From Pseudomonadota bacterium (GTDB taxonomy: Bacteria > Pseudomonadota > Gammaproteobacteria > Burkholderiales > SG8-39), in NCBI GenBank assembly GCA_018241645.1, contig JAFEDL010000029.1, forward strand, positions 36,389-100,388: 64,000 bases of DNA, read 5' to 3'. The translations under genes were made by a program, and so were the position numbers. The notes under the pieces are model-generated. The model made no database searches. It saw only the letters and a list, made by a program, of their open reading frames with translations, and had not been told where the DNA came from. Below, piece by piece: positions 1,435-34,096 of the stretch (its first letter is position 1; each line of letters starts with the position of its first letter).

Positions 1435-2394
1435 TTGGCCCCTCACCGCATCGTCTACCTGCAGCGCGCCACGCTCGACGCGGGGGTACGAGTGCGCCGC
1501 CCCGCATTCGAGCACGAATGGATCGAATATCCCGCCACGCCCGTGGAAGAGATCGCCGGGCGGCTGGCCGGCGCGACGATCGCCGTGTCGAACAAGTTCC
1601 GCCTTACGCGCGAGACGATCGCGTCCGCGCCGACGCTCAAGCTCATCGCCATTGCCGCCACCGGCCACGACAGCGTGGACCTCGACGCCTGCCGCGACCT
1701 GGGCATCGCAGTCACCAACGTGCGCCGCTATTCGGAGCACAGCGTGGCCGAGCACACGCTGATGCTGATGCTGGCCGTCAGCCGCCACCTGAAGGGCTAC
1801 GCGACGCGCACGGCCCTGGGCGCCTGGAACCAGTCGCAGCGCTTCTACCTCGAGGGCCCGGCCATTGGCGACCTGTACGGCAAGACGCTCGCAATCGTCG
1901 GGCGCGGGGGGCTGGGCACCAGCGTCGCGCGGCTGGCCGAGGCTTTCGGCATGAAGATCCTGTGGGCCGAAAGGAAGGGGGCCCCCGCCACGCGCCCGGG
2001 CTACACGCCGTTCATGGAGGCGCTCGCCGCTGCGGACTTCGTGTCGCTGCACTGCCCGTTCTCTCCCGAGAACCTGCACATGATCGGCGAGCCGGAACTG
2101 CGCGCAATGAAAAAGACCGCCTACCTCGTCAACACTGCGCGCGGAAAGCTGATCGACGAGCCGACGCTCGTCTGGGCGCTGATGGAAGGCTGGATCGCCG
2201 GCGCCGCGCTCGACGTGCTGTCCGCCGAGCCGCCGGCGCAGGGCAATGTGCTGCTCGACCAGCGCATCGCCAACCTGCTGATCACGCCGCACATCGCCTG
2301 GGGCTCGACCGAGGCCCGCCAGGCGCTGGCCGACGAGCTGGTCGACTGCATGGAGGCGTTCGTGCGCGGCGAGGCGCTGAACCGGCTGGTGTGA
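1435..2394 (+). CDS. D-isomer-specific 2-hydroxyacid dehydrogenase (glycerate dehydrogenase-like)
   Basis: 319 aa. NAD-binding GKTLAIVGRGGLGTSVA, and the catalytic-region motifs LVNTARGKLID and ITPHIAWGS. Confidence 0.85.
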   Translation: MAPHRIVYLQRATLDAGVRVRRPAFEHEWIEYPATPVEEIAGRLAGATIAVSNKFRLTRETIASAPTLKLIAIAATGHDSVDLDACRDLGIAVTNVRRYSEHSVAEHTLMLMLAVSRHLKGYATRTALGAWNQSQRFYLEGPAIGDLYGKTLAIVGRGGLGTSVARLAEAFGMKILWAERKGAPATRPGYTPFMEALAAADFVSLHCPFSPENLHMIGEPELRAMKKTAYLVNTARGKLIDEPTLVWALMEGWIAGAALDVLSAEPPAQGNVLLDQRIANLLITPHIAWGSTEARQALADELVDCMEAFVRGEALNRLV

Positions 2395-2408
2395 CCTGTC
2401 CTGCGAAA

Positions 2409-2426
2409 TGTACCGGTACCGGTACA
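2409..2426. promoter_or_regulatory. Perfect 18-bp palindrome TGTACCGGTACCGGTACA. Candidate operator, or a weak terminator hairpin.
   Basis: Reads identically on both strands. It lies between the dehydrogenase stop (2394) and the AhpD-like gene start (2551). Confidence 0.3.
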
Positions 2427-2550
2427 AGGATTAGCCGGAGATCGGCTCCTAGCGCGGACATTACAGATACAATGTTCGCAATTCAGTCCACCTGGACGAT
2501 GCGGTCGGCATTCCTTGCGCGCATGCGGTTCGGGCCAAAAGGAGTCCCCG

Positions 2551-3093
2551 ATGCCTTTTTTCGACTCACTGCCGGCCGACGCCGGCGTCCGCCACATCCT
2601 CCAGCTGAACAAGCCGGCCGGACGCGCGTTGATCGAGTTTCACGAGGCGCTGCTGCGCGGCGATTCGCCGCTCAGCCCGGCGCAGCTCGAATTGATCGCC
2701 GCCTACGTTTCGGGGCTGAACGCCTGCCACTATTGCTATGGCGTTCATTCCGAGACCGCGCGATCGTACGGCCTGGAGCCCGGGGTGCTGGAGGCAATGC
2801 TCGCGGATCCCGACTCGGCGCCGGTCGATGCAAGGATGCGCCCGCTGCTTCATTACGCGCGCAAACTCACCCTTACCCCGTCGCGAATGATGCAGTCGGA
2901 TGCCGACGCCGTGCTCGCCGCAGGCTGGAGCGAGCGGGCGCTGCACGACGCAGTGCTGACCGTCTGCCTGTTCAATTTCATGAACCGGCTGCTGGAAGGA
3001 CACGGCTGCAAAGGCGCGCCGGAGGCATTCGCCACGCGGGGCAAAGCGCTCATGGACGAGGGCTACGCGCCGTTGCTCAAATTCCTGGAGTAA
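2551..3093 (+). CDS. Carboxymuconolactone decarboxylase / AhpD-like peroxidase-related protein
   Basis: CHYCYGVH CxxC motif. AAGGAG RBS 8 nt upstream of ATG 2551. The ORF-track start at 2515 lacks an RBS. Confidence 0.75.
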   Translation: MPFFDSLPADAGVRHILQLNKPAGRALIEFHEALLRGDSPLSPAQLELIAAYVSGLNACHYCYGVHSETARSYGLEPGVLEAMLADPDSAPVDARMRPLLHYARKLTLTPSRMMQSDADAVLAAGWSERALHDAVLTVCLFNFMNRLLEGHGCKGAPEAFATRGKALMDEGYAPLLKFLE

Positions 3094-3133
3094 GCGGCTC
3101 AGCCATCCGATCGTTGCACGGCGTCGAGCCGCT

Positions 3134-3661
3134 TCAGGCGTCCCCGCGCGCCGGATAGTTCTTCGCGATGACGAAGTCGAGGCTTTGCAGGATTTCGTTG
3201 AAGTGCGGCCGGCCGAACGGCATGGTCGAAGTGGTGCCCCAGTACAGTCGTCCATCCGGCCGAACGATGTAGAGGCCCGGCTCGTTGAACAGGTCAGGCT
3301 CAACCACGCCCGCCGAGGTCATCCCATTTGAGCGGGAAACGTAAAGGCCCCATTCGCGTACGTCCGCGATCGACAGCCCGTGCCCGATGCGCAGGTTCTT
3401 CAGGCCCCAACCGGCTTTCGCCTGCTCGGCACGGTCTTGCGGATCCGAACTGGCGGCGATGACCGATACACCCCGTTTCTCGAATTCCGGGAGCAGGGTT
3501 TCCAGTTCCGAGAGATAACGCCGGCAGATTGGGCAGTGCAGGCCCCGATAGAACACAACCATCGTGAATTGCTGCGGCCTCTCGCCTGCGAGCGAGAAAG
3601 TCCCGCCTCCTGCGAGGTCTAGTTCCAACATCGGCACCGCTTGGTTCGGGATGAGTGACAT
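3134..3661 (-). CDS. Peroxiredoxin-like (AhpC/TSA-redoxin family) protein
   Basis: MSLIPNQ...FYRGLHCPICRRYL... on a thioredoxin-fold peroxiredoxin-like layout. The upstream part of the 221-aa ORF is Arg-rich junk. Confidence 0.75.
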   Translation of the reverse strand: MSLIPNQAVPMLELDLAGGGTFSLAGERPQQFTMVVFYRGLHCPICRRYLSELETLLPEFEKRGVSVIAASSDPQDRAEQAKAGWGLKNLRIGHGLSIADVREWGLYVSRSNGMTSAGVVEPDLFNEPGLYIVRPDGRLYWGTTSTMPFGRPHFNEILQSLDFVIAKNYPARGDA

Positions 3662-3684: not shown

Positions 3685-4164
3685 TTATCGGTCCGCCGCT
3701 TCGCGCACGATCTTCTCGAAAACCGGATCGAGCTCCCGTGCCATCGCATTCAGTTCGGCGCTGCCATAAGGCGCAAATACCGCGCTGGGGGAGCGCCAAG
3801 TCACGCTGGTCTTCCCGTCGGCCTCCTCGACCAGGTAGATCCGGATCGGCGCTTCGATGCCCGCAGGCACGCTCGCCGCGAGCATCCTTACCGCGTAATC
3901 ATTGCGAAACACCATCAATACGAGATTGCCGCGGATCTTCACTCCGCGTGCGGCTGCGCCGCGACTCGCGCTTGCCTGCGCGACGAGCCCCATCTTGTTC
4001 GACTCGATCGACTTTTCCAGGCGACCGGCCAGCACATCGAAAGCGTACCTCGAGGTTACGCTGTTGGTCCCAGGATATGCCGGGAGCGACTGGGCGAAAG
4101 CAGCGTGCGACACGAGCATGAGCGCCGTGGCGAAAGTGCCCAGGCTGCTGAAAAGTATCTTCAT
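3685..4164 (-). CDS. Secreted DUF302-domain protein
   Basis: Signal peptide MKILFSSLGTFATALMLVSHAAFA, then a DUF302-like core (VLMVFRNDYAVRML...IRIYLVEEADGKT). Confidence 0.7.
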   Translation of the reverse strand: MKILFSSLGTFATALMLVSHAAFAQSLPAYPGTNSVTSRYAFDVLAGRLEKSIESNKMGLVAQASASRGAAARGVKIRGNLVLMVFRNDYAVRMLAASVPAGIEAPIRIYLVEEADGKTSVTWRSPSAVFAPYGSAELNAMARELDPVFEKIVREAADR

Positions 4165-4364: not shown

Positions 4365-4940
4365 GTGGCGGGGAAAGAGACGGATCTGGCGAGAGAACTC
4401 GAATCGCATCGCGATTACCTCGTGCGATTCGCGCTATTCATGCTGCGCGACCTGGCGCTCGCGGAGGACGCCGTACAGGAGACGTTCATCTCCGCTCTTG
4501 CGAGCCATGAAGAATTCCAAGGTCGCTCGCAATTGCGTACCTGGCTGACGGCGATCCTGAAGAACAAGGTGTTCGACCTCGTGCGCAGCCGAAGCAAGGG
4601 CCCGCCGATGGTTTCTTCGGACGACTTACAGGAAGACGACGGCAGGGACGGCGCATTCGGCGAGAGGGGGCAGTGGATTGACCCCCCGTCGAACTGGGGT
4701 TTGCCCGAGGAAGCCTTCGAGTCGAGCCAGTTCTGGGAAACCTACTTGAAATGCTGCAAGGTCATGCCGGAGCGCCAGGCGCTGGTGTTCTCGATGCGCG
4801 AGGTGTTGGGCCTCTCAGCCGAAGAAATATGTAAGAAACTCGAACTGACCACGTCCAATCTCCATGTGATCCTTTTCAGGGCGCGGCAGAGTTTGCGCAC
4901 GTGCATGACGAAAAACTGGTTTGGTGGCGAACATGGGTAA
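4365..4940 (+). CDS. ECF (group IV sigma-70) RNA polymerase sigma factor
   Basis: Region 2 (YLVRFALFMLRDLALAEDAVQETF) and region 4 (LSAEEICKKLELTTSNLHVILFRARQSL) are both recognisable. Confidence 0.85.
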   Translation: MAGKETDLARELESHRDYLVRFALFMLRDLALAEDAVQETFISALASHEEFQGRSQLRTWLTAILKNKVFDLVRSRSKGPPMVSSDDLQEDDGRDGAFGERGQWIDPPSNWGLPEEAFESSQFWETYLKCCKVMPERQALVFSMREVLGLSAEEICKKLELTTSNLHVILFRARQSLRTCMTKNWFGGEHG

Positions 4941-5136
4941 GCTGATGTATTCGTGCGAGCAGGCCGCAAGACTCAGCTCGCGGGCGATGGAAGAGCCTCT
5001 GGGGCCCGTGGATCGGACGATGCTGAGGCTCCACCTGATGATGTGCGCCAATTGCACGAATTTCTCCCGCCAGATCGAGTTCCTCCGCCGAGCTTCGCGC
5101 AAGGTCCCGGAAGCCATCGATAGGGGAAAAACCTGA
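4921..5136 (+). CDS. zf-HC2 type anti-sigma factor
   Basis: 71 aa. Overlaps the sigma gene by 20 nt. H-x3-C-x2-C motif (HLMMCANC). Confidence 0.7.
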   Translation: MVANMGKLMYSCEQAARLSSRAMEEPLGPVDRTMLRLHLMMCANCTNFSRQIEFLRRASRKVPEAIDRGKT

Positions 5137-6573: not shown

Positions 6574-7260
6574 TTACAGGCCGAGGATTTCCGGCAAGGC
6601 CGCCAGCGTGCTGATTTCGCCATCCGGAAGTTCGGGGATGCGCTCCGGCGCCTGGCCGAACCGATTGCACCAGACCACGTGAAATCCGAACGCCTTGGCC
6701 GCGTGCGCGTCCCATGCGTTGGAAGACAGGAAGCAGATCTCCTCCCGCTCGATCCCGAACTGCGTGGTCGCAAGCGCATACACCGAGGGATGGGGCTTGA
6801 ATACTTTGACTTCCTCAACTGATATGACTGCGTCCAGCAGGCTGGCGATCCTCGAATTCTCGGTGGCTGCCCCCAGCATTCGCGGCGAACCGTTGGAGAG
6901 GATCGCAAGCCTCATGCCGCCCGCCTTGAGGCGCTCGAGCGTGCCCTTTACCTCCGGGTAACTGCTGAGCCTGAGGTAGGACTCCATCAACCGGGTGCGC
7001 AGGACCGGGTCGGCGATCTTCAGGCTCGTCATAGCGTAGTCCAGCGCGTCTCCCGTGACCTGCCAGAAGTCCGCGTGGCGGCCCATGAGGCCCCGCAGCC
7101 AGGTGTACTGCAGTTGCTTTGTTCGCCACAGGTCTGCGAGCGGCTGCCACTTGTCCCCCAACGCGTCGCTTTCGGCCGCGGCGGCGCTATTGACGTCGAA
7201 CAATGTGCCGTACGCGTCGAACACGCATGCACGGATTCCGGTGAGGCGAAGCGGTGTCAT
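6574..7260 (-). CDS. Haloacid dehalogenase type II (HAD superfamily)
   Basis: ACVFDAYGTLFDV nucleophile motif, SNGSPRML, and SSNAWDAHAAKAFG. Confidence 0.85.
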   Translation of the reverse strand: MTPLRLTGIRACVFDAYGTLFDVNSAAAAESDALGDKWQPLADLWRTKQLQYTWLRGLMGRHADFWQVTGDALDYAMTSLKIADPVLRTRLMESYLRLSSYPEVKGTLERLKAGGMRLAILSNGSPRMLGAATENSRIASLLDAVISVEEVKVFKPHPSVYALATTQFGIEREEICFLSSNAWDAHAAKAFGFHVVWCNRFGQAPERIPELPDGEISTLAALPEILGL

Positions 7261-8603
7261 TCTTTTCCCCTTGGCGAATGCCCTTTGATTTGCGAGTACT
7301 GCCTGTCCGCACCAACCACCGTAACACGCCGTGGTTGAATCCCGGCTTCCTGGCCGGGCAACGGCCGGCGCTCCTCATTGAAGGTGAAGCCGGAGCGCAG
7401 GGAAGCGGCGAGCGCGGTACGGATCATTTTTTCCCCGCGAACGGCCGGTCCGCCGGCCAGCAACGACTCGAAGAGGCCCGCGTAAAAGGCGTCGGGTTCG
7501 ACGCGCATCCGGTAGGTCAGTGACACAGCGTTAGGGTGAATGGTCTCGAGATAGTCGAACGTTGCCGCCTCGTCGGGCGCCAGCCGTGTATCGGATATCT
7601 CAGTCGACAGGTCCGCTGAAACAACGCGAGCGATCACGTATTGGCGGAGCGTACCCCGCAGCATCTTCCCTGCCCGGTCGGACTGGAAGATCTCGGCGAT
7701 CACCTTGGGCGTCACATAAGTCGGGAACCGGTGCCCGGTACCGGTATTGCGGACCTCGAGGCTCGCCTGGATTGCGGGGCCCGCGCGGACCGGATCCGAT
7801 GCACGCATCGTCACGCCGCCCCGCATGGTCGGTTCGTCATGGACCCCGCGCCACAGATGGCGCCGGTCCGGCATGTGACACGACTGGCAAGCGCGCCCTT
7901 CCTTCGCGTAGCGGCTCGCCTTCCATTCCTCGTAGGTGTTTTCGAGATACTTCCCGTTCAAGGCGAAGTCGCCTTCCCCGAACTGGTGGCATGCGGCGCA
8001 GAACTTCGAATCCTCAAACGCGGCGCTTGCGCTCCAACCGCCGTGGGGAAGGCCGGTGTCTGTCGCCAACGGTGCGCTGCCGTCGCGCCTTGGCGGCCCG
8101 AAGCGGATGTGCTGGCGAACATGACAACCCGCGCAGGTCAGCCCCCGCTCGTGAGCCCCTGGGCGTGCGTGTGCAGTTTTGTCTGCGATCGCCTCGGACA
8201 GGCTAGTCGCCTGCTCGGACAAGGGCGCGTGGCAGCGGATACACGCCTGGTGCTCCTCGCGTGCTTCCGGCGCCATGTCGACCAACTGGCCGAGCACGCC
8301 CGGTCCCATGGCCCGTGAATGAAGCGACGCCTTCCAGTCGCTGAACTGGCCCGCATGACAGGCGCCGCAGGCTTCCGGGTCAAGCGCATGCCCCGCTGTG
8401 CCGAAGCCGGCCGGAACGGGACCCTGAGGCCCGATCGGTCGCTGCCAATGACGGCCGAGAAATCCATCGATCGCGCCAGTTCGGACACCCGACCCGTCCG
8501 TGGGCAGCGGCTTCTCGCCGCACCCAGCCAACAGGAAGAAAAGGACGAGGACGGCAAGCCTCCTGCCGTTCGCAATCAGGAATTGCCCATGCCGGCGTGA
8601 CAT
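7257..8603 (-). CDS. Pentaheme c-type cytochrome lipoprotein
   Basis: Lipobox LLAGC. Five CxxCH motifs (CGACH, CIRCH, CAGCH, CAACH, CQSCH). 4-nt ATGA overlap with the downstream HAD gene. Confidence 0.8.
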   Translation of the reverse strand: MSRRHGQFLIANGRRLAVLVLFFLLAGCGEKPLPTDGSGVRTGAIDGFLGRHWQRPIGPQGPVPAGFGTAGHALDPEACGACHAGQFSDWKASLHSRAMGPGVLGQLVDMAPEAREEHQACIRCHAPLSEQATSLSEAIADKTAHARPGAHERGLTCAGCHVRQHIRFGPPRRDGSAPLATDTGLPHGGWSASAAFEDSKFCAACHQFGEGDFALNGKYLENTYEEWKASRYAKEGRACQSCHMPDRRHLWRGVHDEPTMRGGVTMRASDPVRAGPAIQASLEVRNTGTGHRFPTYVTPKVIAEIFQSDRAGKMLRGTLRQYVIARVVSADLSTEISDTRLAPDEAATFDYLETIHPNAVSLTYRMRVEPDAFYAGLFESLLAGGPAVRGEKMIRTALAASLRSGFTFNEERRPLPGQEAGIQPRRVTVVGADRQYSQIKGHSPRGKE

Positions 8604-8703
8604 TCTTCGGTTCGCAGCTTACCCGCGGCCGGGGAAATCCGAACGGATTCCCCCGGGTCCTGTTGCCAGCCCAGCAATCGGCACAGGGCTTGTGGGCCCC
8701 GCG

Positions 8704-8934
8704 TTACTTCTTTTTCGCCGCGCAGGGGTTCTTGGCAGCGCACGGATTTTTCGCAGCGCACGGATTCGCTTTCGCCCCGCACGGGTTCTTCTTTGCGGCG
8801 CACGGATTGGATTTCGCCGCACACGGATTCTTCTTCGCGGCGCAGGGATTCGCCTGGGCATGGGCCATCGGGACTGCCAGTGCGAGCGCGGCGGTGCCGA
8901 GGGCCAGGCGGACGTGCTTCATGTCGATCTTCAT
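8704..8934 (-). CDS. Secreted cysteine-repeat peptide: signal peptide plus seven NPC(A/G)AK repeats
   Basis: MKIDMKHVRLALGTAALALAVPMAHA / QANPCAAKKNPCAAKSNPCAAKKNPCGAKANPCAAKNPCAAKNPCAAKKK. The repeats differ at synonymous codon positions. Confidence 0.7.
   Translation of the reverse strand: MKIDMKHVRLALGTAALALAVPMAHAQANPCAAKKNPCAAKSNPCAAKKNPCGAKANPCAAKNPCAAKNPCAAKKK
8707..8850 (-). repeat. Coding tandem repeat of 18-21 nt units encoding NPCAAK(K)
   Basis: Seven units seen in translation. They also generate the mirror repeat FAAHGF in the antisense ORF 8597..9064. Confidence 0.8.
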
Positions 8935-9119
8935 GGTGGGTTCCTGTCAGGTTGGGGACGTAATTGTCTTGCTGCGAAATTTCCGCGGCAGGCATCTGAC
9001 GAGGGCACTGCCAGGAACCTTACACATCCGCCACGGGTTGCAGTTGGCCGTGACTGCACTGTAAGGATCCGGGTTGCCAGGCGGTCTAACCGGCACCAAT
9101 CATCGAAGGGGTTCGGGAA

Positions 9120-9515
9120 ATGCGCGCATTCAACTCACTTTGCCGGTCGGCGTTGCTGCTTGCGGTCGGGATGTTCATGTCGGGCGCGATCGCGGCGGCC
9201 GAACGGCCCTACTCGGATGCAGAGTTTGCAGCGACACAGCGCGCAGGCAAGCCGGTACTGCTCGCCGTGCATGCCGACTGGTGTCCGACCTGCCGGGCGC
9301 AAGAGCAGGTCCTGAAAGAGTTGCTCACGGACAAGCGGTACGCGGGCATCTCGGTTTTTCGCGTCGACTTCGACTCGCAAAAGGCGGTACTCAAGCGGTT
9401 CGGGGTCCGAACCCAGAGCACGTTGATCCTGTTCAAGGGGACCACCGAGGTTTCCCGCTCAATCGCACAGACTGACCGAAACGCGATCGCCGCGGATCTC
9501 GCGAAAGCGCTGTAG
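9120..9515 (+). CDS. Periplasmic thioredoxin-family protein
   Basis: Signal peptide plus the WCPTC active site. Confidence 0.8.
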   Translation: MRAFNSLCRSALLLAVGMFMSGAIAAAERPYSDAEFAATQRAGKPVLLAVHADWCPTCRAQEQVLKELLTDKRYAGISVFRVDFDSQKAVLKRFGVRTQSTLILFKGTTEVSRSIAQTDRNAIAADLAKAL

Positions 9516-9528
9516 CCGGGAGCAGGGA

Positions 9529-10257
9529 ATGGAGTTCGGCCTGGGTACCTACGGAATCGCGTTCGCCGCGGGAGGACTCTCCACGCTCTCCCCGTGCGTT
9601 CTGCCACTGGTGCCGATTCTTATCGGATCGGCCCTGACCGCGCATCGGTTCGGCGCATGGGCGCTCGCCGGAGGCTTGGCCCTGTCGTTCACGCTGGTAG
9701 GCGCCCTGCTCGCCAGCCTCGGTGCCACCTCCGGCCTGGACCCGGATGCTCTGCGCACCGTCGCAGCGGTGATGTTGCTTGTATTCGGGGGCCTACTGGT
9801 GTCACAACGACTGCAGGATCGCTTTGCGCTTGCCACCGCCGGGGTCTCCGGAGCCGGACAAAATATGCTTTCCGGGTTGTCGGCTGACGGGCTGTCCGGA
9901 CAGTTCACTCTCGGATTGCTCCTGGGCATTGTGTGGAGCCCCTGCGTCGGACCTACGCTGGGGGCGGCAATCACTCTTGCGAGTCAAGGCGAACACCTGA
10001 GCCAGGTCGCGCTGGTCATGGCGCTGTTCGGGCTCGGCGCAGGGATTCCGCTCATCGTACTTGGAACGCTATCGCGCCAGGCGATGAGCCGCATTCGGGG
10101 GCGGCTCCTGTTCGCGGGACGTAACGGAAAAAAAATTCTGGGCGTGGCGATGCTGATTCTCGCCGCCTTCATTTTGACGGGTGCGGACAAGAGTGCTGAA
10201 AGCTGGATCCTGGACGTGACACCCGACTGGGTTACCCGCGTCGGCACGCAGCTATAG
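9529..10257 (+). CDS. ccdA: Cytochrome c biogenesis / thiol-disulfide electron transporter CcdA (DsbD family)
   Basis: 242 aa, six TM segments, with the conserved Cys pair in LSPCVLPLVP and VWSPCVGP. Confidence 0.85.
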   Translation: MEFGLGTYGIAFAAGGLSTLSPCVLPLVPILIGSALTAHRFGAWALAGGLALSFTLVGALLASLGATSGLDPDALRTVAAVMLLVFGGLLVSQRLQDRFALATAGVSGAGQNMLSGLSADGLSGQFTLGLLLGIVWSPCVGPTLGAAITLASQGEHLSQVALVMALFGLGAGIPLIVLGTLSRQAMSRIRGRLLFAGRNGKKILGVAMLILAAFILTGADKSAESWILDVTPDWVTRVGTQL

Positions 10258-10399
10258 AGCGCTGGTGTAAGTTTTCCGCGCACCACGGTGTCTCATCAAC
10301 ACGGCGAGCGCAAAGATGTTGGATCCGCGGGTCGGCTGCCGGTACGAATCCGACAGCCCCCTGCAGGCGCGCTTCGCATACCCACCAAAGGGAGTACAA

Positions 10400-11047
10400 A
10401 TGAACCTGAACCTTCGCCCCATGACTGCCGCGATGCTGTCGTCCGGATTGTTGCTTGGCGTGCCACCAGCCTCGGCCAATCCGTGCGCCCCGCGCGCAAA
10501 CGCACCGATGCAGTTGGCGCAGAACCCGTGTGCCGCCAAAAAGAACCCCTGTGCAGCGAAAAATCCCTGCGCGGCTAAGAACCCCTGCGGGGCGGGCGGC
10601 GTCAACCCGAACCTGGTCACCCGTCCGGCCGGAAGCAAGCCGTTTGCAGGCAACAAAGCGGAGCTTGTCGCGCTGGGCGAGAAGCTCTGGTCCGACACCA
10701 AGCTGAGCTCCAACGGCCTTTCCTGCGTGACGTGCCACCAGGGCAACAACGCTTTCAATGCCAGTTTCGCAAAGCCCTACCCGCACCTCGTTGCCATGGC
10801 GGACGATCAGTCGAAGTTGAAGCGGATTACGATGGAACAGATGGTCCAGTTCTGCATGGTCGTTCCGATGGCGGCGAAGCCGCTGGCCTGGGATTCCAGG
10901 GAACTCGCGGCATTGACCGCGTACACCGGTGTGGTGCAAATGGGGTTCACCAAGACTGGTGCGAAAAATCCTTGCAGCGCGAAAAATCCATGTGCGGCCA
11001 AAAACCCCTGCGCAGCGAGGAACCCCTGCGCAGCGAGGAAGAAGTAG
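10400..11047 (+). CDS. Monoheme c-type cytochrome flanked by N- and C-terminal NPCAAK repeat tracts
   Basis: AAAGGGAG RBS upstream of ATG 10400. Signal peptide, five N-terminal NPC units, heme site LSCVTCHQG in a CCP-like context (LWSDTKLSSNG), and five C-terminal NPC units. Confidence 0.8.
   Translation: MNLNLRPMTAAMLSSGLLLGVPPASANPCAPRANAPMQLAQNPCAAKKNPCAAKNPCAAKNPCGAGGVNPNLVTRPAGSKPFAGNKAELVALGEKLWSDTKLSSNGLSCVTCHQGNNAFNASFAKPYPHLVAMADDQSKLKRITMEQMVQFCMVVPMAAKPLAWDSRELAALTAYTGVVQMGFTKTGAKNPCSAKNPCAAKNPCAARNPCAARKK
10475..10591 (+). repeat. Coding NPC(A)AK tandem repeat (N-terminal tract of the cytochrome)
   Basis: ANPCAPR...QNPCAAKKNPCAAKNPCAAKNPCGAG. Confidence 0.75.
10940..11044 (+). 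repeat. Coding NPC(A/S)A(K/R) tandem repeat (C-terminal tract of the cytochrome)
   Basis: GAKNPCSAKNPCAAKNPCAAKNPCAARNPCAARKK. Confidence 0.75.
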
Positions 11048-11054
11048 GCAGCGC

Positions 11055-11822
11055 ATGAACGGGCGCGCGGCATTGGCTGAAGGGGATGGGCTTCACGATT
11101 CCGCGTGCGCCGTGCCGCGCCTTGCGTCCCTTACCCGGGGGGAACTGCTGTCAATGCGCGCCGCCGGGCTGGACGTGCTCGAATTCCAGCGGGTCCTGGC
11201 CAAGGGCGGCTTGAACATCGTCGGCGAACTGCTGCGCGGAGCAGATGGTTTCGTCGAGTACGACCACTACCCGGAAGACGACGTATTCGATGCGGATTCG
11301 GGTGCGCAGTACTACTACCACGCGCATCGCGGATTGCACGGCGAGCACGGGCATTTTCACACCTTCCTGCGCGCGCGCGGGATGCCGGCCGGCGTCTCCC
11401 TGTCGGATATGCCGCACGCCGAACCCTGGCCCGAGGGCAACGACGCGCTTTGCCACCTGATCTCCATATCGATGGATGCCTACGGCGCGCCGATCGGCCT
11501 GTTCGCACCGAACCGCTGGGTGACCGGCGACACCTGGTACCCGGCCGACGAGGTCGTCAGAATGCTCGACTGCTTCCGCATCGATCATGCAAATCCGTCC
11601 TGGCCAGTCAATCGCTGGCTGGGTGCCATGTTCCTGCTGTACCGGCCTCACATCATCGAGCTGCTCCACGCACGTGATCGCAAGATCGCACTGTGGCGAG
11701 AGAAGCACCCCCGGGAAGACGTACTCGAGGATCGCGAACTGGAAATCCTCGCGCATCTTCCGATTTCCATAGCGGCCACGATGTCCGAGCTGGACATGGC
11801 CCTCGCAGTAGCAACCCGTTGA
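11055..11822 (+). CDS. Conserved hypothetical protein (His-rich motif YYYHAHRGLHGEHGHFHTF)
   Basis: 255 aa, starting 7 nt after the cytochrome stop. I could not assign a family. Confidence 0.5.
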   Translation: MNGRAALAEGDGLHDSACAVPRLASLTRGELLSMRAAGLDVLEFQRVLAKGGLNIVGELLRGADGFVEYDHYPEDDVFDADSGAQYYYHAHRGLHGEHGHFHTFLRARGMPAGVSLSDMPHAEPWPEGNDALCHLISISMDAYGAPIGLFAPNRWVTGDTWYPADEVVRMLDCFRIDHANPSWPVNRWLGAMFLLYRPHIIELLHARDRKIALWREKHPREDVLEDRELEILAHLPISIAATMSELDMALAVATR

Positions 11823-11832
11823 ACTTCCCGCC

Positions 11833-12300
11833 ATGGACCTTCGAAAAATATTGATTGCTGGCTTGGTGCTTGCCGCACCGGTGGCGTCGCTTTTGGCACA
11901 GTCCGGGCCCAAATCCCCGCTGATCGAACTGACCCAGATCCCCTGCCAGTTCCTGGAGAGTGAGGACGGGCGGGACCGCGGCTTCAAGGCTGCCGCGGCG
12001 AAGGATTGCGAGGCGATCAACGCGCGCGGCGGCAGGCAACGGGTGGCGGAATCTAAGACGATCGAACTCAGGCCGGGCAAGTACATCTTTCGCGTAACCA
12101 ACAAGAACGTGCCCTATGAACTTGGCTTCTGGGTGCGCGGCGAATCTCTGGTCGATCGTGCCCGGCTGCCGAGCGTATCCGGTGGGGGATTGACCTCCGG
12201 GAAGACGCAGGACTACGCCATCGAACTCAAGGCCGGCAATTACGTCTATTCCTGCCCCTTGAATCCCACGCCCGACTACAAGCTCGTCGTGAGGAACTGA
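11833..12300 (+). CDS. Secreted cupredoxin-like beta-sandwich protein lacking a full type-1 copper ligand set
   Basis: Signal peptide. GKYIFRVTNKN...YELGFWV...AGNYVYSCPLNPTPDYKLVV resembles a cupredoxin C-terminal loop but has no His or Met after the Cys. Confidence 0.45.
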   Translation: MDLRKILIAGLVLAAPVASLLAQSGPKSPLIELTQIPCQFLESEDGRDRGFKAAAAKDCEAINARGGRQRVAESKTIELRPGKYIFRVTNKNVPYELGFWVRGESLVDRARLPSVSGGGLTSGKTQDYAIELKAGNYVYSCPLNPTPDYKLVVRN

Positions 12301-13446
12301 TTGCCAAAGGTGCAGGCGGGACCGCTCTGCAGCGCGGCCGCGATCTGCGCGTTACTGATCGCAGCCGTCTGGGGCCAGGGCCCGCGAATGGTCCTGCTTG
12401 CCACAATCGGCATCCTCCTGGGAATCACGCTCTTCCATTCGTCCTTCGGCTTCGCGTCGGCCTACCGGCGGCTGCTCGAAGGCCGCGGGGTACGCGCCGT
12501 GCAGGCGCAGATCCTGATGCTCGCCGCAGCAACGCTGCTCTTTACGCCGGTCCTCGCCCAAGGTGAATTTTTCGGTCGCGAAGTAGTCGGCGCAATCGCC
12601 CCGGCCGGCATACCGGTGGCACTGGGCGCGTTCCTGTTCGGAATCGGCATGCAGCTGGCAGGCGGGTGCGGGTCGGGCACCCTCTATGCAGCAGGCGCCG
12701 GGCAAGGGCGCATGGTCCTGGTCCTCGGCGCCTTCTGCGCCGGTGCGTTCTGGGCGAGCCTTCACATGGGTCTTTGGGAGCGGCTCCCCGCTTTTGAACC
12801 CATGGCCCTTGGGGACGCGCTCGGGTGGCCGATTGCGGTCGTGTTGCAACTGGCCTTGTTCGGCGTGCTGCATGGCCTGCTCGGCAGGCTCCCCGGGGCC
12901 GGCGCCGATGCATCGCCCCGGATTGCCGCATCGCTGCAGCGAGTCTGGCGCGGCCCCTGGACTCCCGAGGTCGGGGCGCTTGTCCTCGCCGGGCTGGCTT
13001 TTCTGACGCTGATTGTGGCGGGCCACCCGTGGTCGATCACCTGGGCGTTCACGCTGTGGGGAGCGAAGGCGGCAGTGGCGCTGGGCTGGGAACCGGGCGC
13101 AAGCGAATTCTGGGCCGCGGCATTCCAGCGCGAATCGCTCGAGTCAGGGGTGCTTTCTGACGTAACCTCGGTCATGGATATCGGGATTCTTGCAGGCGCC
13201 TTCCTGGCGGCAGGCTGGGCGGGCGGATTCAGGCCGCGCCTCGGCCCCACTCCGCGCGCCGTGCTGGTCGCGATGCTGGGCGGCGTCGCGATGGGGTATG
13301 GCGCACGTATAGCGTTCGGTTGCAACGTCGGCGCGTTCTTTTCTGGCATTGCCAGTACCAGCCTGCACGGCTGGCTGTGGATCGCCAGCGCGCTGCCCGG
13401 AAGCTGGGTCGGCCTGAAACTTCACGCGCGCCTGGCGATCCGGTAG
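12301..13446 (+). CDS. YeeE/YedE-family sulfur-compound (thiosulfate-type) transporter
   Basis: Two sulfur-transport half-domains with GGCGSGTLY and FGCNVGAFFSG. The start is uncertain: TTG at 12301 abuts the previous stop, and the alternative is ATG 12388. Confidence 0.8.
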   Translation: MPKVQAGPLCSAAAICALLIAAVWGQGPRMVLLATIGILLGITLFHSSFGFASAYRRLLEGRGVRAVQAQILMLAAATLLFTPVLAQGEFFGREVVGAIAPAGIPVALGAFLFGIGMQLAGGCGSGTLYAAGAGQGRMVLVLGAFCAGAFWASLHMGLWERLPAFEPMALGDALGWPIAVVLQLALFGVLHGLLGRLPGAGADASPRIAASLQRVWRGPWTPEVGALVLAGLAFLTLIVAGHPWSITWAFTLWGAKAAVALGWEPGASEFWAAAFQRESLESGVLSDVTSVMDIGILAGAFLAAGWAGGFRPRLGPTPRAVLVAMLGGVAMGYGARIAFGCNVGAFFSGIASTSLHGWLWIASALPGSWVGLKLHARLAIR

Positions 13447-13462
13447 GCGCGGGACTTCATTC

Positions 13463-14155
13463 ATGGATGTGCCCACCCGCAAACCCAGCAGCCGCTGGTT
13501 CGCCGCAATTGCCGCCGTGATCCTGGTGACGATCCTTGTTGCGATCTACCTCGTACTGCACCAGACGGGAACACTCGGCACACTCCTCGACAGTGCGGCA
13601 CTGCACGCGCTGGTTGAACGGCTGGGCCCTTGGGGGCCCATCGCAATCATCGCGCTGATGGTGCTTTCCGTCGCGATCAGTCCGATCCCCAGCGCGCCGA
13701 TCGCGATGGCTGCCGGTGCGGCGTATGGGCATCTTTGGGGCACGCTTTACGTGGTCGTCGGCGCGGAGATAGGCGCACTGACGGCGTTCGGCGTCGCCCG
13801 CCTGGTCGGCCAGGCCGCGCTGTACCGATGGTTCGGCGAGCGCCTCTCGACCGGCCTGATCGGGTCCCAGAACGCATTGACTGGCATCGTCTTCGTCAGC
13901 CGCCTGCTGCCCTTTGTGTCGTTCGACCTGGTGAGCTACGCCGCAGGCCTGACGCTGCTTTCGCCCTGGCGCTTCGCCCTCGCCACGCTCGCGGGCATCA
14001 TCCCCATGAGCTTTCTGCTGGCCCATTTCGGCACGGAACTGTCCAGCGGCGAGTCGGATCGATTCATGTACACCGCCCTGGGTCTGGGTCTGGTGACCGC
14101 GCTGCCGATTGGCGCGAAGCTCCTGCGTGACCGATACCGTCGGCGGAGCGCATGA
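13463..14155 (+). CDS. TVP38/TMEM64 (DedA-related) membrane protein
   Basis: VSRLLPFVSFDLVSYAAGLT signature. 230 aa, polytopic. Confidence 0.75.
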   Translation: MDVPTRKPSSRWFAAIAAVILVTILVAIYLVLHQTGTLGTLLDSAALHALVERLGPWGPIAIIALMVLSVAISPIPSAPIAMAAGAAYGHLWGTLYVVVGAEIGALTAFGVARLVGQAALYRWFGERLSTGLIGSQNALTGIVFVSRLLPFVSFDLVSYAAGLTLLSPWRFALATLAGIIPMSFLLAHFGTELSSGESDRFMYTALGLGLVTALPIGAKLLRDRYRRRSA

Positions 14156-14189
14156 AAGGTTTCGGCATTCGTGCGCGACTAACTGTCAC

Positions 14190-15560
14190 ATGGAACCGAA
14201 CCCGCCCCACGACAAATCGGTACTGAGCTGGCTCGGATTGTGGCGGATCAGGCCGGACATGCACCTCCCGGCGCGCGTGGAGCGCGCCCTCGAGGAACTA
14301 CAAAAGCGAAGTGAGATCCTTATTGGCTGGGTGCAGGCGTCGCTGATTGCGGTGCTCGGTACTTTGTACCTCGTCGCGCCCAGCACTTCCCCCGCAGACG
14401 CGACATTCCGTCCGGTGCCGTGGGCGCTCGGCATCTACGCCGCGTTCACGTTGCTGCGGCTAGTGCTCGCATACCGCAACCGCCTCACCCCCGTGTTGAA
14501 GATCGCTTCGGTGCTGGTGGATATTTCGATGCTGATGATCACGATCTGGAGCTTCCACATCCAGTATTCCCAACCGGCGGCGTTCTACCTCAAGGCGCCG
14601 ACGCTCCTTTACGTATACATTTTCATCGTACTGCGCGCGCTGACCATCACGCCCGGCTACGTGATGTTTACGGGCCTGGTAGCCGCGGGCGGATGGCTGG
14701 CCCTGCTTGGGTATGCGCTGGCGGAACCGGGCGGCGCGGCACTCGTGACGCACGACTACGTCGAGTACATGACTTCGGCCAAGATCCTGGTTGGCGGGGA
14801 AGTGGATCGTGTCGTCTCTATCCTGATAGTGACCCTCGTGCTCTCGGTTTCGGTGGCACGCGCGCGGCAGCTCTTGTTCCAGGCAGTTGGCGACCAGGCA
14901 GCGCTTTCACAGTTGTCGCGCTTTTTCTCACCTGAAATCGCCGAGCGGCTGGCGCGCGCCGACGAACTGCTCCACTCTGGGGACGGCGAGCAGCGCGAAG
15001 CGGCGGCGATGTTCATCGACCTGCGCGGCTTTACCAAACTTGCTGCCGAACTCGCCCCTGCCAGCCTGATCGAGCTGCTGCGCGAATACCAGCGCGTGGC
15101 CGTGCCGATCATCCACAGGAACAACGGCAGCGTGTCGACCTACGTCGGCGACGGCATCATGGTGACCTTCGGCGCCACCCGGGCGTCCGGCACTCATTGT
15201 GCGGACGCAATGCGCTGTGCGGACGAACTGCTCACGGCGCTGGTCGGTTGGTGCATGGCGCGCGAAGCGAAAGGCCTTCCGGCGCCGGGCGTGGGCATCG
15301 GAGTGGAGGCGGGCACGGTCACCTGCGGCGTCATCGGCGACGAGGGCCGCCTCGAATACTCGATCATCGGCGACCCGGTGAACCGCGCCGCCAAGCTGCA
15401 GAACCACACCAAAGTCGAGGGCGTGCTCGGACTCGCGAGCATCGCCTGCCTCGAGCGCGCGCTTGCGCAGGGGTACTTGCCGAAGGGGCAGCAACGGGTA
15501 CTCGCCGATCGTGAGGTTGCGGGCGTCTCAGGCGCCATGACTGTCGTGGCTCTTGGGTGA
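14190..15560 (+). CDS. Membrane-anchored class III adenylate/guanylate cyclase
   Basis: N-terminal multi-TM domain, then a cyclase homology domain (AAMFIDLRGFTKL, YVGDGIMVTFG, GDPVNRAAKLQ). Confidence 0.85.
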   Translation: MEPNPPHDKSVLSWLGLWRIRPDMHLPARVERALEELQKRSEILIGWVQASLIAVLGTLYLVAPSTSPADATFRPVPWALGIYAAFTLLRLVLAYRNRLTPVLKIASVLVDISMLMITIWSFHIQYSQPAAFYLKAPTLLYVYIFIVLRALTITPGYVMFTGLVAAGGWLALLGYALAEPGGAALVTHDYVEYMTSAKILVGGEVDRVVSILIVTLVLSVSVARARQLLFQAVGDQAALSQLSRFFSPEIAERLARADELLHSGDGEQREAAAMFIDLRGFTKLAAELAPASLIELLREYQRVAVPIIHRNNGSVSTYVGDGIMVTFGATRASGTHCADAMRCADELLTALVGWCMAREAKGLPAPGVGIGVEAGTVTCGVIGDEGRLEYSIIGDPVNRAAKLQNHTKVEGVLGLASIACLERALAQGYLPKGQQRVLADREVAGVSGAMTVVALG

Positions 15561-16072: not shown

Positions 16073-16684
16073 ATGATGCCTGCTGACCTCCCCAACCGCT
16101 CCGTCGAATTCTTCGACACCCAGTTCCGCCGCCAGGCCGCGGCGGGCGAATACGCGCTCAATCCCTTTGAGCAGGCGGTTCTGCCTTTCCTCTCGGGCGA
16201 GACGCTCGACCTGGGCTGCGGACTCGGAAACCTTTCGCTGGCGGCAGCAGCGCGCGGCTGCATGGTGCTGGCGCTTGATGCGAGCGCCGCCGCAGTGGAA
16301 AGCCTTGCAGGGCGGGCCGCGGCAGGCGTGCTCCCGGTCCAAGCGCGGCAAGCCGACCTGCGGAACTACGCACCTTCACAAGAGTATGACTCGGTCGTGG
16401 CGATCGGCCTCGCCATGTTCTTCGCCTGCCCGGACGCCCATGCAATGATTGCGCGCATCCGCGCCGCCGTCCGCCCCGGCGGCGTGGCCGCCGTGAACGT
16501 GCTGATCGAAGGGACGACTTTCATGGGGATGTTCACGCCCGGGGACTATTGCCTGTTCGGCGAGCATTCCCTTGAAGAGGCCTTCGCAGGCTGGGCGGTC
16601 GAGTACCTGAAGTTTGACGCATTCCCCGCGCCCGGCGACACGGTGAAGCGCTTCTGCACGATGGTTGCGCGGCGGTCCCGGTGA
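16073..16684 (+). CDS. Class I SAM-dependent methyltransferase (TehB-like)
   Basis: SAM motif I LDLGCGLGNLSLAAAARG followed by VLALDAS. Confidence 0.8.
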   Translation: MMPADLPNRSVEFFDTQFRRQAAAGEYALNPFEQAVLPFLSGETLDLGCGLGNLSLAAAARGCMVLALDASAAAVESLAGRAAAGVLPVQARQADLRNYAPSQEYDSVVAIGLAMFFACPDAHAMIARIRAAVRPGGVAAVNVLIEGTTFMGMFTPGDYCLFGEHSLEEAFAGWAVEYLKFDAFPAPGDTVKRFCTMVARRSR

Positions 16685-19182: not shown

Positions 19183-19638
19183 ATGAGCGAAAACGCCAGC
19201 GTCACCATCACCCAGAAGAGCAACTACCAGTTCCTCGTCGATTTCGGCGCCGGCATTCCGCACGTGCTGGCCGACGAGCCCGTGCCGCTGGGCGCGGGCG
19301 AAGGGCCTTCGCCGAACCAGCTCCTGCTCGCCGCAGTCACCAACTGCCTGTCGGCCAGCCTGTTCTTCGCGCTGAACAAGTTCAAGCAGGATGCCGGCGG
19401 CATCACCACCACGGGCACCGCGATCGTCGGCCGCGACGCCGACAAGCGCCTGAGGGTGAACGAAATCGACGTCACCATCCGGCTCGGCAAGCCGGGCGGA
19501 GACATCGAGCACCTCGATCGCATCCTCGCCCAGTTCGAAGCCTTCTGCACCGTCACCCAGAGCGTGCGCCACGGAATCCCGGTGGTCATCGCGGTGGAGG
19601 ACGGCCAGGGCGTGCGGGTGGACAAGCCCGCGCCCTAG
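19183..19638 (+). CDS. OsmC-family peroxiredoxin-like protein
   Basis: PSPNQLLLAAVTNCLSASL ... FEAFCTVTQSV, the two conserved Cys regions of OsmC/Ohr. Confidence 0.8.
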   Translation: MSENASVTITQKSNYQFLVDFGAGIPHVLADEPVPLGAGEGPSPNQLLLAAVTNCLSASLFFALNKFKQDAGGITTTGTAIVGRDADKRLRVNEIDVTIRLGKPGGDIEHLDRILAQFEAFCTVTQSVRHGIPVVIAVEDGQGVRVDKPAP

Positions 19639-19669
19639 CAACCCATCCAAGCCAAACCCGGAGAAGACC

Positions 19670-20854
19670 ATGACCACACGCGAAATCGTTCTGTGCAATC
19701 CCGTGCGCACCGCCATCGGCACCTACGGCGGCTCGCTCAAGGACACGGCGGCCCCGGCGCTCGGCGCCGCCGTGATCCGCGAAACCCTCAAGCGTTCCGG
19801 CCTCGCCGCTGACAAGGTGCAGGCGCTGGTGATGGGCAACGTCATCCAGGCGGGCGTGAAGATGAACCCGGCGCGCCAGGCGGGCATCGGCGCCGGGCTC
19901 CCCGTTACGGTTCCGGCGCTGACCGTGAACCGCGTGTGCGGTTCGGGCGCGCAGGGCATCGTCAGCGCGGCGCTGGAGATCTCGGCGGGCATGCTCGACT
20001 GCGCGATCGCGGGCGGCATGGAGAACATGGACCGCGCCCCCTACCTGATGCCGCAGGCGCGCTGGGGCGCCCGCATGGGCGACGTCACGTCCTACGACTC
20101 CATGCTGTACGACGGGCTCAACGACGCGTTCTCCGGCCAGCATTCGGGCTGGCACACCGAGGACCTCGTGGCGAAGAACAACGTCAGCCGCGCCGACCAG
20201 GACCGCTGGGCGCTGCGTTCGCAGCAGCGGTTTTCCGCGGCGCAGGCAGCGGGAAAATTCGGCGCCGAGATCGTGCCGTTCGAAGTGCCCGGCAGGAAGG
20301 GCCCGACCGTCTTCGACAAGGACGAGCACAACCGGCCGGAGACCACGGCGGAAAGCCTTGCCAAACTGAAGCCCGCATTCCGCAAGGAAGGCACCATCAC
20401 CGCCGGCAACGCGCCCGGGCTGAACACCGGCGCCGCGGCGATGATCGTCGCCGAGCGCGGCTGGGCCGAAAAGAACGGCCTCAAGCCGATGGCGAAACTG
20501 GTGTCCTACGGCGTGGGCGCGGTGGAACCCGGCTTCTTCGGCCTCGGTCCAGTGCCCGCGGTGCGCCAGGCGCTCGAGCGCGCCGGCTGGAAGGTGGGCG
20601 ACGTGCAGCGCGTCGAGATCAACGAGGCCTTTGCGGCCATCGCGCTCGCATGCCTGCGCGAGCTGGGCTTTGCCGAGGACATCGTCAACGTCGAGGGTGG
20701 CGCGATCGCCCATGGCCACCCGATCGGCGCTTCGGGCGCGGTGCTGGCCACGCGCCTCATGCACTCGATGCAGCGCGACGGCCTGAAGCGGGGCATCGTC
20801 ACGCTGTGCATCGGCGGCGGCCAGGGCATCGCGCTGGCGCTCGAGATGCTTTGA
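19670..20854 (+). CDS. Acetyl-CoA C-acetyltransferase (thiolase II)
   Basis: 394 aa. VNRVCGSG active-site Cys, NEAFAA, GGAIAHGHPIGASG, CIGGGQGIA. Confidence 0.95.
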   Translation: MTTREIVLCNPVRTAIGTYGGSLKDTAAPALGAAVIRETLKRSGLAADKVQALVMGNVIQAGVKMNPARQAGIGAGLPVTVPALTVNRVCGSGAQGIVSAALEISAGMLDCAIAGGMENMDRAPYLMPQARWGARMGDVTSYDSMLYDGLNDAFSGQHSGWHTEDLVAKNNVSRADQDRWALRSQQRFSAAQAAGKFGAEIVPFEVPGRKGPTVFDKDEHNRPETTAESLAKLKPAFRKEGTITAGNAPGLNTGAAAMIVAERGWAEKNGLKPMAKLVSYGVGAVEPGFFGLGPVPAVRQALERAGWKVGDVQRVEINEAFAAIALACLRELGFAEDIVNVEGGAIAHGHPIGASGAVLATRLMHSMQRDGLKRGIVTLCIGGGQGIALALEML

Positions 20855-34093: not shown

Positions 34094-34096
34094 TTT

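Follow-up and report, generated by a model that had tools for sequence, protein, structure and literature searches.

We analyzed a 64,000-nucleotide stretch of a Pseudomonadota genome (contig JAFEDL010000029.1, positions 36,389 to 100,388; hereafter the window) that carries a small gene for an exported peptide made of seven Asn-Pro-Cys-Ala-Ala-Lys units (NPC repeats). NPC peptides are a widespread, hitherto undescribed family of exported peptides and protein tails. Judged from sequence comparison, the peptide of the window is the free-standing form of a portable Cys-repeat module, which is also built into c-type cytochromes with a SoxA/TsdA fold and into other redox proteins. We tentatively propose that the repeats act as carrier arms for sulfane sulfur (or selenium) in the periplasm.

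A conserved gene for a Cys-repeat peptide

The peptide gene translates as MKIDMKHVRLALGTAALALAVPMAHA (signal peptide) followed by QANPCAAKKNPCAAKSNPCAAKKNPCGAKANPCAAKNPCAAKNPCAAKKK (mature part). An earlier interpretation of the window, made from its letters only (the sequence-only reading), had described a 26-amino-acid (aa) signal peptide, and a 50-aa mature part with seven NPC[A/G]AK units that has seven Cys and otherwise uses no residues but N, P, A, K, G, S, and Q. The translation of the open reading frame (ORF) agrees exactly, and the mature part ends in a KKK tail. The signal peptide MKIDMKHVRLALGTAALALAVPMAHA has a basic n-region, a hydrophobic core, and an AHA-Q cleavage site. By these sequence rules, and by the conservation of the signal peptide in homologues, the peptide is predicted to be exported via Sec. 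An AGGA motif lies about 9 nt 5' of the ATG.

We compared the seven units at the nucleotide level. Summed over all pairs of units, there are no differences at codon position 1, 6 at position 2, and 65 at position 3. As they are almost confined to third positions, the differences reflect purifying selection on the peptide and not recent slippage, which is what the sequence-only reading had argued. The back-translated unit AAYCCNTGYGSNGCNAAR (at most one mismatch) occurs 14 times in the window versus 0.13 times expected. Seven of these matches fall in the peptide ORF and seven in a second gene, at 10523-11038. An Rfam search of positions 7000-14500 found no RNA.

The peptide gene is real. That it is instead a chance ORF, or the shadow of an antisense frame in GC-rich DNA, has next to no probability. 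The window does contain many overlapping ORFs, such as an antisense 155-aa ORF at 8597-9064, and its own peptide is missing from a collection of 5.8 billion proteins. However, variation limited to third positions, the excess of pattern matches, hundreds of homologues with signal peptides across phyla, and conserved synteny all speak against this explanation, and the conservation data refute it. The sequence-only reading did not include the second repeat gene (1.4 kb from the peptide gene), the conserved gene module, or the fusions of the repeat to other domains, all described below.

A widespread family without a described relative

A search of the 5.8-billion-protein set returned 244 homologues at E ≤ 0.01; their lengths are 54-133 aa, and all are annotated as 'hypothetical'. 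When 1.84 billion cluster representatives were searched with HMMER without an index, 257 matched at E ≤ 1e-3; a few long matches in this library (P0365, P0368, P0396, and others) were rejected as unrelated low-complexity proteins. A scan of GTDB (one genome per species) confirmed at least 273 NPC places. We retrieved 80 of these as unbiased genome loci, and they come from beta-, gamma-, and alphaproteobacteria, Rokubacteria, Nitrospinae, Myxococcota, and cyanobacteria. Isolates with NPC genes include Aromatoleum tolulyticum, Azoarcus sp. Aa7, Denitromonas spp., Stutzerimonas chloritidismutans AW-1, and Hahella, and tubeworm endosymbionts are also among the hosts. Stutzerimonas chloritidismutans is a chlorate reducer, and many of the host genera are known as denitrifiers or nitrifiers.

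All homologues begin with a signal peptide or a lipobox, followed by NPC repeats. In the family logo, the six positions of the unit are N (88%), P (95%), C (100%), A (81%), A (68%), and K (72%), and successive Cys are mostly spaced by 6 or 7. The peptides have a median net charge of +9. Seven of 121 peptides are neutral or acidic, so the Lys beside Cys is conserved more than the overall charge. About 12% of the family have His- or Met-rich inserts, with at least three His in 14 and at least three Met in 17 of the 121 peptides.

The sequence-only reading did not recognize the repeat as a described family, and our searches bear this out. Profile searches of Pfam and NCBIfam with the peptide matched 0 families at E ≤ 0.01, and a full-text literature search on the repeat motif and on DUF6969, a neighboring protein, found no relevant paper in the library searched. 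The sole precomputed Pfam tag on a few homologues (Cornifin, PF02389) is spurious. Hundreds of small exported NPC peptides have been left unannotated or missed by gene callers. In the window, the peptide and a repeat-tailed cytochrome (10316-11047) are both missing from the 5.8-billion-protein set, and the adjacent DUF6969 protein is present (P0241). Repeat-rich genes may be dropped by gene callers or filters.

Repeat-tailed cytochromes share the SoxA/TsdA fold

The second repeat gene of the window encodes a monoheme cytochrome flanked by NPC tails, with a CVTCH heme site and a conserved Cys in the motif MVQFCM. Its core matches Pfam PF21342 (SoxA-TsdA_cyt-c) at 38.3 bits (cutoff 27). In a Foldseek search of the core against the PDB, the top 11 matches were all TsdA or SoxA, with a probability of 1.00 each. 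The protein has the fold of the SoxA/TsdA catalytic domain with one CxxCH. In the AlphaFold model, the predicted local distance difference test score (pLDDT) is above 90 for the core and below 50 for both repeat tails, which predicts disorder in the tails. In the alignment, the active-site heme-ligand Cys96/123 of TsdA is matched by the invariant Cys, and an invariant Met five residues on is an alternative candidate for the ligand. We found no second heme or electron-transfer heme domain, as a single CxxCH is present in 120 of the 120 top homologues. A separate pentaheme cytochrome is the neighbor in place of SoxX or the second TsdA domain.

More than 1,165 proteins belong to this cytochrome family, and they are named at most 'cytochrome c peroxidase' or 'c-type cytochrome'. 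NPC repeats are located on both sides of the heme motif in 111 of the best 120 homologues. The 'cytochrome c peroxidase' label on more than 1,000 repeat-tailed proteins looks like a systematic misannotation, and these entries in fact make up a separate SoxA-fold family whose tails are Cys repeats. Enzymes of the SoxA family couple thiosulfate oxidatively to a thiolate; in the Sox system, this thiolate is provided by the carrier-arm Cys of SoxY (PMC4423706).

A portable repeat module

In 22 loci, a free peptide is encoded beside a heme fusion, in most cases at a distance below 200 nt. Further fusion partners of the repeat are cytochrome P460, a C-terminal WCxxC thioredoxin, a YHS (seleno)protein-type domain, and a small beta domain. 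Four alphaproteobacterial loci (L036, L062, L074, and L080) encode a cytochrome P460 domain joined to 13-24 NPC repeats. DUF6969 adjoins the fusion in each of them, and a secreted FGE-sulfatase-like protein is nearby in three. Cyanobacterial fusions, of the thioredoxin-lipoprotein or the YHS type, lie in L014 (8230-8841), L021 (9338-9937 and 10001-10696), and L010 (1867-2688), and in L021 a DsbD_TM gene adjoins the thioredoxin fusions. In a Pseudanabaenales protein, the YHS (seleno)protein-type domain is joined to 14 repeats. Fusion of the repeat to thioredoxin and other redox domains indicates that the repeat Cys are serviced by redox domains, and the cyanobacterial thioredoxin fusions are an independent sign of this.

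The conserved gene neighborhood

We profiled the gene neighborhood by tblastn of the window proteins against 87 loci and by de novo clustering of neighbors. The most frequent partners are DUF6969 (50-54 of the 87 loci), the SoxA/TsdA-like core (49), the YeeE/YedE transporter (27-33), DUF302 (24-29), the pentaheme cytochrome (22-24), a secreted 155-aa protein that we call p155 (21-26), and an extracytoplasmic function (ECF) sigma factor (20-23). DUF3179 (15), AhpD-like proteins (13), and TlpA-like thioredoxins (8) follow, and DedA-fused flavoprotein reductases are further recurrent neighbors. In the window, the peptide gene and, downstream of it, the pentaheme cytochrome gene are on the reverse strand. 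Diverging from them on the forward strand are thioredoxin, CcdA, the repeat-tailed cytochrome, DUF6969, p155, YeeE, and DedA. DUF302 and the ECF sigma/zf-HC2 anti-sigma pair sit 4 kb upstream (Table 1).

Table 1 Features of the NPC peptide gene and its neighborhood in the window (positions 1 to 64,000).
Feature	Position	Strand	Remark
Secreted DUF302 protein	3685..4164	-	Probable start MKILFSS...; ORF open to 4341
ECF sigma factor	4365-4940	+	TIGR02943 family
Short zf-HC2 anti-sigma factor	4921-5136	+	HxxxCxxC motif
Lipoprotein pentaheme c-type cytochrome	7257..8603	-	Downstream of the peptide gene, same strand
NPCAAK-repeat peptide gene	8704..8934	-	76 aa
Stop codon of the peptide gene	8704-8706	-	
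Mature repeat region	8707-8856	-	50 aa
Seven repeat units	8713-8850	-	
Signal peptide	8857-8934	-	26 aa; Sec type predicted by sequence rules
Divergent intergenic region	8935..9119	.	Between the peptide and thioredoxin operons
Secreted thioredoxin	9120..9515	+	WCPTC motif
CcdA/DsbD-type membrane reductant transporter	9529..10257	+	
Monoheme cytochrome, SoxA/TsdA-fold core, NPC tails at both ends	10400..11047	+	ORF open from 10316; probable start 10400
N-terminal NPC tail of the cytochrome	10523-10579	+	
C-terminal NPC tail of the cytochrome	10967-11038	+	
DUF6969 protein	11112..11822	+	Most constant partner of NPC genes
Secreted 155-aa protein p155	11833..12300	+	Beside YeeE; no known family
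YeeE/YedE-family (Sulf_transp) inner-membrane transporter	12301..13446	+	
DedA/VTT-family membrane protein	13463..14155	+	Looser module member (11 loci)

The thioredoxin of the window is 51% identical to the one beside the NPC peptide in L090. The transporter reaches family level against Pfam Sulf_transp (202 bits) and stays below the NCBIfam equivalog cutoffs for YedE/FdhT (121 vs 350) and TsuA (75 vs 400). The p155 protein adjoins YeeE in most of its loci. It has three invariant Cys and the motifs PCQFxExE, SVSGGG, and YSCPLNxTPDY, and it matched no Pfam, NCBIfam, or PDB entry, the PDB having been searched with the single sequence and with a profile. The pentaheme cytochrome is homologous to the recently described selenoenzyme MccSep/ExtKL, a polysulfide reductase, over all five heme motifs (E 2e-12) and, by sequence, is a distinct, uncharacterized branch of this scaffold.

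DUF6969 lacks a signal peptide, and its His/Glu cluster (Y-Y-H-x-H-R...E-H-G-H-F-H) is invariant. An NPC gene is directly upstream of it, on the same strand, in 37 of 54 loci. Its AlphaFold model is confident (pLDDT 92, predicted TM score (pTM) 0.90) and has no fold match in the PDB (best E 0.44). The HxH...E...H cluster had led to the guess that DUF6969 is a cupin, which we rejected on this result. From the model, DUF6969 looks like a new fold and is probably a metalloprotein. The contexts of DUF6969 on Azospirillum and Ciceribacter plasmids contain no NPC gene and were uninformative.

The intergenic region between the two diverging operons contains an inverted pair of TGTAAGG(T/A)TCC sites, at 9014-9024 (reverse strand) and 9060-9070 (forward strand). 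Each copy lies 12-13 nt before CGTC or GTC, and the same 11-mer is found upstream of the peptide gene in L012. We consider the pair possible ECF-type promoters, judging from the letters. A candidate motif of the ECF/anti-sigma regulon is TGTAAGGNTCC. A sigma-70-like site is located at 9074-9103. A search for the canonical ECF promoter pattern ([GT]GAAC-N14-19-CGT/GTC) upstream of 50 peptide genes found essentially nothing.

Other observations concern the wider surroundings. Some NPC/DUF6969 loci (L019, L038, L046, L060, L064, and L086) adjoin a set that NCBI names 'arsenosugar biosynthesis', consisting of TIGR04282/TIGR04283 glycosyltransferases, an ArsS radical SAM protein, and DUF547. The window contains a TehB-like methyltransferase at 16073-16684. 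On the reverse strand at 35481-37001, inside an apparent additional (N-type) ATPase operon at 30705-37001, lies the gene for an ATP synthase subunit of the alpha/beta family that has a YHS domain at its N-terminus. Two ORFs, at 1518-3158 (forward strand, 546 aa) and 19586-21346 (reverse strand, 586 aa), have no Pfam match and may be shadow ORFs; the former also has no NCBIfam match.

A proposed role as sulfur or selenium carrier arms

We interpret the NPC repeats as redox-serviced polythiol carrier arms in a Sox-like relay of sulfane sulfur (or selenium), a possibility to which we give somewhat less than an even chance. The proposal builds on the gene, its export signal and conservation, the fusions, the predicted disorder of the tails, the fold and conserved Cys of the partner, and the neighborhood. 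From these we infer the chemical steps, the identity of the cargo, and the direction of electron flow. The peptide would be a free, Sec-exported copy of an intrinsically disordered polythiol arm, (Asn-Pro-Cys-Ala-Ala-Lys)n, with seven accessible, Lys-flanked Cys thiolates that could serve as mobile acceptor or carrier sites in the periplasm. The SoxA/TsdA-fold Cys-heme cytochrome would load or oxidize the arm thiols to a persulfide, a thiosulfonate-type adduct, or a disulfide, and its electrons could pass to the neighboring pentaheme cytochrome. The chalcogen cargo (sulfane sulfur, possibly selenium) would be handed to p155 and the YeeE/YedE channel and enter the cytoplasm, where DUF6969 would act. 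Thioredoxin and CcdA would re-reduce the arms, and the ECF sigma factor would switch the module on. The peptide may be likened to the swinging arm of SoxY, but would be an unrelated, multivalent carrier.

The sequence-only reading had suggested that the thiols could chelate metals or metalloids or could carry persulfide or polysulfide sulfur, and either role may apply. The context, as we analyze it, favors sulfur-type thiol chemistry. The repeats flank a SoxA/TsdA-fold domain, and YeeE, DUF302, thioredoxin/CcdA, and a relative of MccSep are nearby. DUF302 and YeeE occur inside sox clusters (PMC11034169; PMC5037610). SoxT resembles YedE and is a transporter proposed for the import of SoxY-bound sulfur, SoxS is a thiol-disulfide oxidoreductase of the periplasm, and SoxV is a CcdA orthologue (PMC10451225). 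Taken together, these sulfur-linked partners favor a chemistry of sulfane sulfur or selenium in which the NPC arms would be the multivalent carriers and thioredoxin/CcdA would reset them. How carrier-bound sulfane sulfur passes to the cytoplasm is still a mystery in the sulfur-oxidation literature (PMC10451225). If the proposal holds, bacteria of at least five phyla capture reduced sulfur (or selenium) in the periplasm independently of Sox, and multivalent disordered thiol arms pass sulfur through a YeeE/YedE channel, which would offer a tractable system for sulfane-sulfur import.

Several observations weigh against the carrier-arm proposal. TsdA Arg119 is an invariant, thiosulfate-binding active-site Arg (PMC4423706). 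This Arg, four residues before the Cys and invariant in TsdA and SoxA, is a nearly invariant Met in the repeat-tailed cytochromes ('EMVQxC'), and the position of TsdA Ser127 is Pro. Thiosulfate binding as in the known enzymes is therefore unlikely. As far as the alignment tells, the invariant Met five residues after the Cys could be the true sixth heme ligand. In the pentaheme neighbor, the selenocysteine of MccSep (Sec325) is replaced by an invariant Tyr and the counterpart of the heme-ligand Cys239 is absent, and we rejected the idea that this protein is a true MccSep polysulfide reductase. No SoxY, SoxZ, or SoxB gene was found in any of the 87 loci. With these replacements and absences, the system is not Sox, TsdA, or MccSep and at most works like them. 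Many hosts (Nitrosomonas, Aromatoleum, and cyanobacteria) are not sulfur oxidizers. Five loci adjoin clusters for bufferins, which are copper-chelating peptides that are synthesized ribosomally and then modified post-translationally (RiPPs), and these loci, like the His- or Met-rich peptides, point to metals. Finally, DUF6969 is cytoplasmic and directly follows the repeat gene, so a maturation enzyme fits equally well.

The bufferin-adjacent loci led us to keep two alternatives as live rivals, soft-metal binding and modification by DUF6969. The repeat could be a periplasmic chelator of soft metals or metalloids that serves in an envelope response to metal stress controlled by an ECF sigma factor, its thiolates binding Cu(I), Hg(II), Cd(II), As(III), or similar ions. 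Thioredoxin/CcdA would keep the ligand Cys reduced, and the heme domains would oxidize or reduce the bound ion. Bufferins, the RiPPs introduced above, chelate copper, are exported via Sec, and are controlled by SigF/NrsF (PMC11626156). The Met/His-rich NPC peptides P0081 and P0047 are directly upstream of bufferin-1 clusters (BufA1, MNIO, DUF2063, and DoxX), and one of these two loci also has ECF/zf-HC2 and thioredoxin/CcdA pairs that are 51-57% identical to those of the window. The gene order in L082 is NPC peptide, DUF6969, BufA1, BufB, BufC, DoxX, and buf genes occur within 10 kb in 3 of the 80 unbiased loci. NrsF/SigF and CzcCBA nearby in L001, NicO beside the peptide in L091, the fusion of the repeat to a YHS domain, the ECF sigma factors, and the peptides with three or more His or Met point the same way. 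So does true MerA in L015 and L040. A 'MerA-like' cluster of neighbors was otherwise rejected as metal evidence: it is mixed, with DedA-fused flavoprotein reductases and a glutathione-reductase-like protein, so the evidence was taken from these two loci only, which hold its only true MerA proteins. We nevertheless regard metal chelation as rather unlikely. Classical cop, cus, czc, mer, and ars genes are not recurrent neighbors, and the constant partners (the SoxA/TsdA-fold heme protein, YeeE, and DUF302) are associated with sulfur and not with metals. Pairs of the CxC or CxxC type, which are usual in metal sites, are missing from the repeat unit, none of the invariant residues of p155 is His or Met, and most members, including the window peptide, have no His or Met in the mature part.

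If DUF6969 acts before export, it would modify the repeat Cys (or Asn, Pro, or Lys) in the cytoplasm in a RiPP-like manner, and the mature product would be a modified periplasmic chelator or cofactor carrier instead of a free polythiol. The frequent position of the NPC gene directly before DUF6969, whatever domain the repeat is fused to, is consistent with this, as are the confident model without a known fold and the invariant His/Glu cluster. There is also precedent for Sec-signal precursors, including long repeat proteins, that are modified before export, as MNIO enzymes do for bufferins and EGKCG 'oxazolins'. L082 has tandem 'precursor plus enzyme' pairs, and the cyanobacterial loci lack DUF6969 and have a different conserved 208-aa protein beside the repeat gene. 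On the other side, MNIO genes are missing from about 95% of the loci, DUF6969 also occurs without a nearby NPC gene in Azospirillum, Sinorhizobium, and Burkholderia replicons, about 40% of the loci have no DUF6969 within 10 kb, and no RiPP recognition element (RRE)-like domain and no protease/exporter were recognized. The thioredoxin fusions and the thioredoxin/CcdA neighbors argue for free, redox-cycling periplasmic thiols. We judge such modification to be distinctly unlikely. By the same low estimate, NPC repeat and DUF6969 would be a new precursor-enzyme pair, with DUF6969 as an iterative cytoplasmic metalloenzyme that works on peptides and on whole heme proteins. If true, the post-translationally modified products would be a hitherto unknown class of polydentate carriers or chelators in the periplasm, which arose without MNIO enzymes as an independent counterpart of bufferins. 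Either way, if the metal or the RiPP-like explanation is right, a new periplasmic system for metal defense or peptide modification exists alongside bufferins.

MrpX, a small periplasmic Met-rich peptide under SigF/NrsF, is sacrificially oxidized and then re-reduced (PMC4436054), and the NPC peptide could be its Cys counterpart, a scavenger or thiol buffer. Its thiols would be oxidized by hypochlorite, peroxide, species derived from NO, or electrophiles and regenerated by thioredoxin/CcdA or the heme domain. This would suit the ECF sigma factors at the NPC loci, the NrsF in L001, and the short zf-HC2 anti-sigma factor with its HxxxCxxC motif. Thiol-regenerating genes occur at the loci (thioredoxin/CcdA, the TlpA-like and AhpD-like proteins, and a peroxiredoxin in L003), and the hosts include the chlorate reducer, Denitromonas spp., and the denitrifier and nitrifier genera. 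We rate such a role slightly below modification by DUF6969, since it leaves unexplained the tight link to YeeE, p155, DUF302, and DUF6969 and the presence of the repeats in more than 1,000 cytochromes of the SoxA/TsdA fold, and no repair gene of the periplasmic sulfoxide-reductase type is recurrent.

Comparison with known systems

As proposed, the NPC module resembles SoxYZ/SoxAX and TsdA in that a periplasmic Cys on a flexible peptide would be the acceptor for a SoxA-family Cys-heme cytochrome. Thioredoxin and CcdA correspond to SoxS/W and SoxV, YeeE corresponds to SoxT, and DUF302 is shared with sox clusters. Unlike SoxY, the peptide has no GGCGG C-terminus, no Ig-like domain, no SoxZ partner, and no relation in sequence or fold. 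GGCGG-like ORF ends were absent from the 87 loci, and the peptide had no SoxY/SoxZ match in Pfam or NCBIfam. The NPC carrier also differs from SoxY in that it is multivalent, with 7 to more than 25 Cys, is disordered, and in most cases forms one polypeptide with the enzyme. Unlike in Sox, the SoxA-family Arg is Met, and there is no second heme, SoxX, SoxB, or SoxCD. The polysulfide reductase MccSep/ExtKL shares its five heme motifs with the pentaheme neighbor, not with the peptide. MccSep chemistry combines a Cys-ligated heme with a nearby chalcogen nucleophile, whereas the neighbor has an invariant Tyr for Sec325 and no Cys239.

Among thiol- and thioether-rich peptides, metallothioneins and phytochelatins are likewise Cys-rich, of low complexity, and thiolate-based. 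They are cytoplasmic, rich in CxC/CC, and form metal-cluster folds, whereas the NPC peptide is exported and has a single Cys every 6-7 residues between Pro, Ala, and Lys. MrpX is closer in being a small low-complexity Sec-exported peptide dominated by one sulfur amino acid, with an ECF sigma factor and a regenerating reductase. Unlike MrpX, the NPC peptide is built on Cys instead of Met, its proposed regenerator is thioredoxin/CcdA or the heme domain instead of MsrP, and it sits in a transporter and cytochrome module. Its mature part contains no Met, no MsrP/YedY-like cluster was found among the recurrent neighbors, and NrsF was found only in L001.

The closest known peptides in style are the bufferins and the Buf_EGKCG 'oxazolins'. 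They are small periplasmic Cys peptides with Sec signals, ECF sigma regulation, and DoxX-like neighbors, and the oxazolins are likewise built from short Lys/Cys repeats (EGKCG). The NPC peptide matched no bufferin-precursor model of Pfam or NCBIfam, as it matched neither library at all; the Pfam set searched includes PF10048 (BufA1/DUF2282). MNIO (DUF692) and DUF2063 were not found in the window and are absent from about 95% of the loci. The bufferin-adjacent NPC loci (five of 89) each have their own BufA1 precursor. The NPC family thus differs from bufferins in its motif, in its constant partner, which is DUF6969 and not MNIO, and in its repeats, which are usually the tails of heme proteins.

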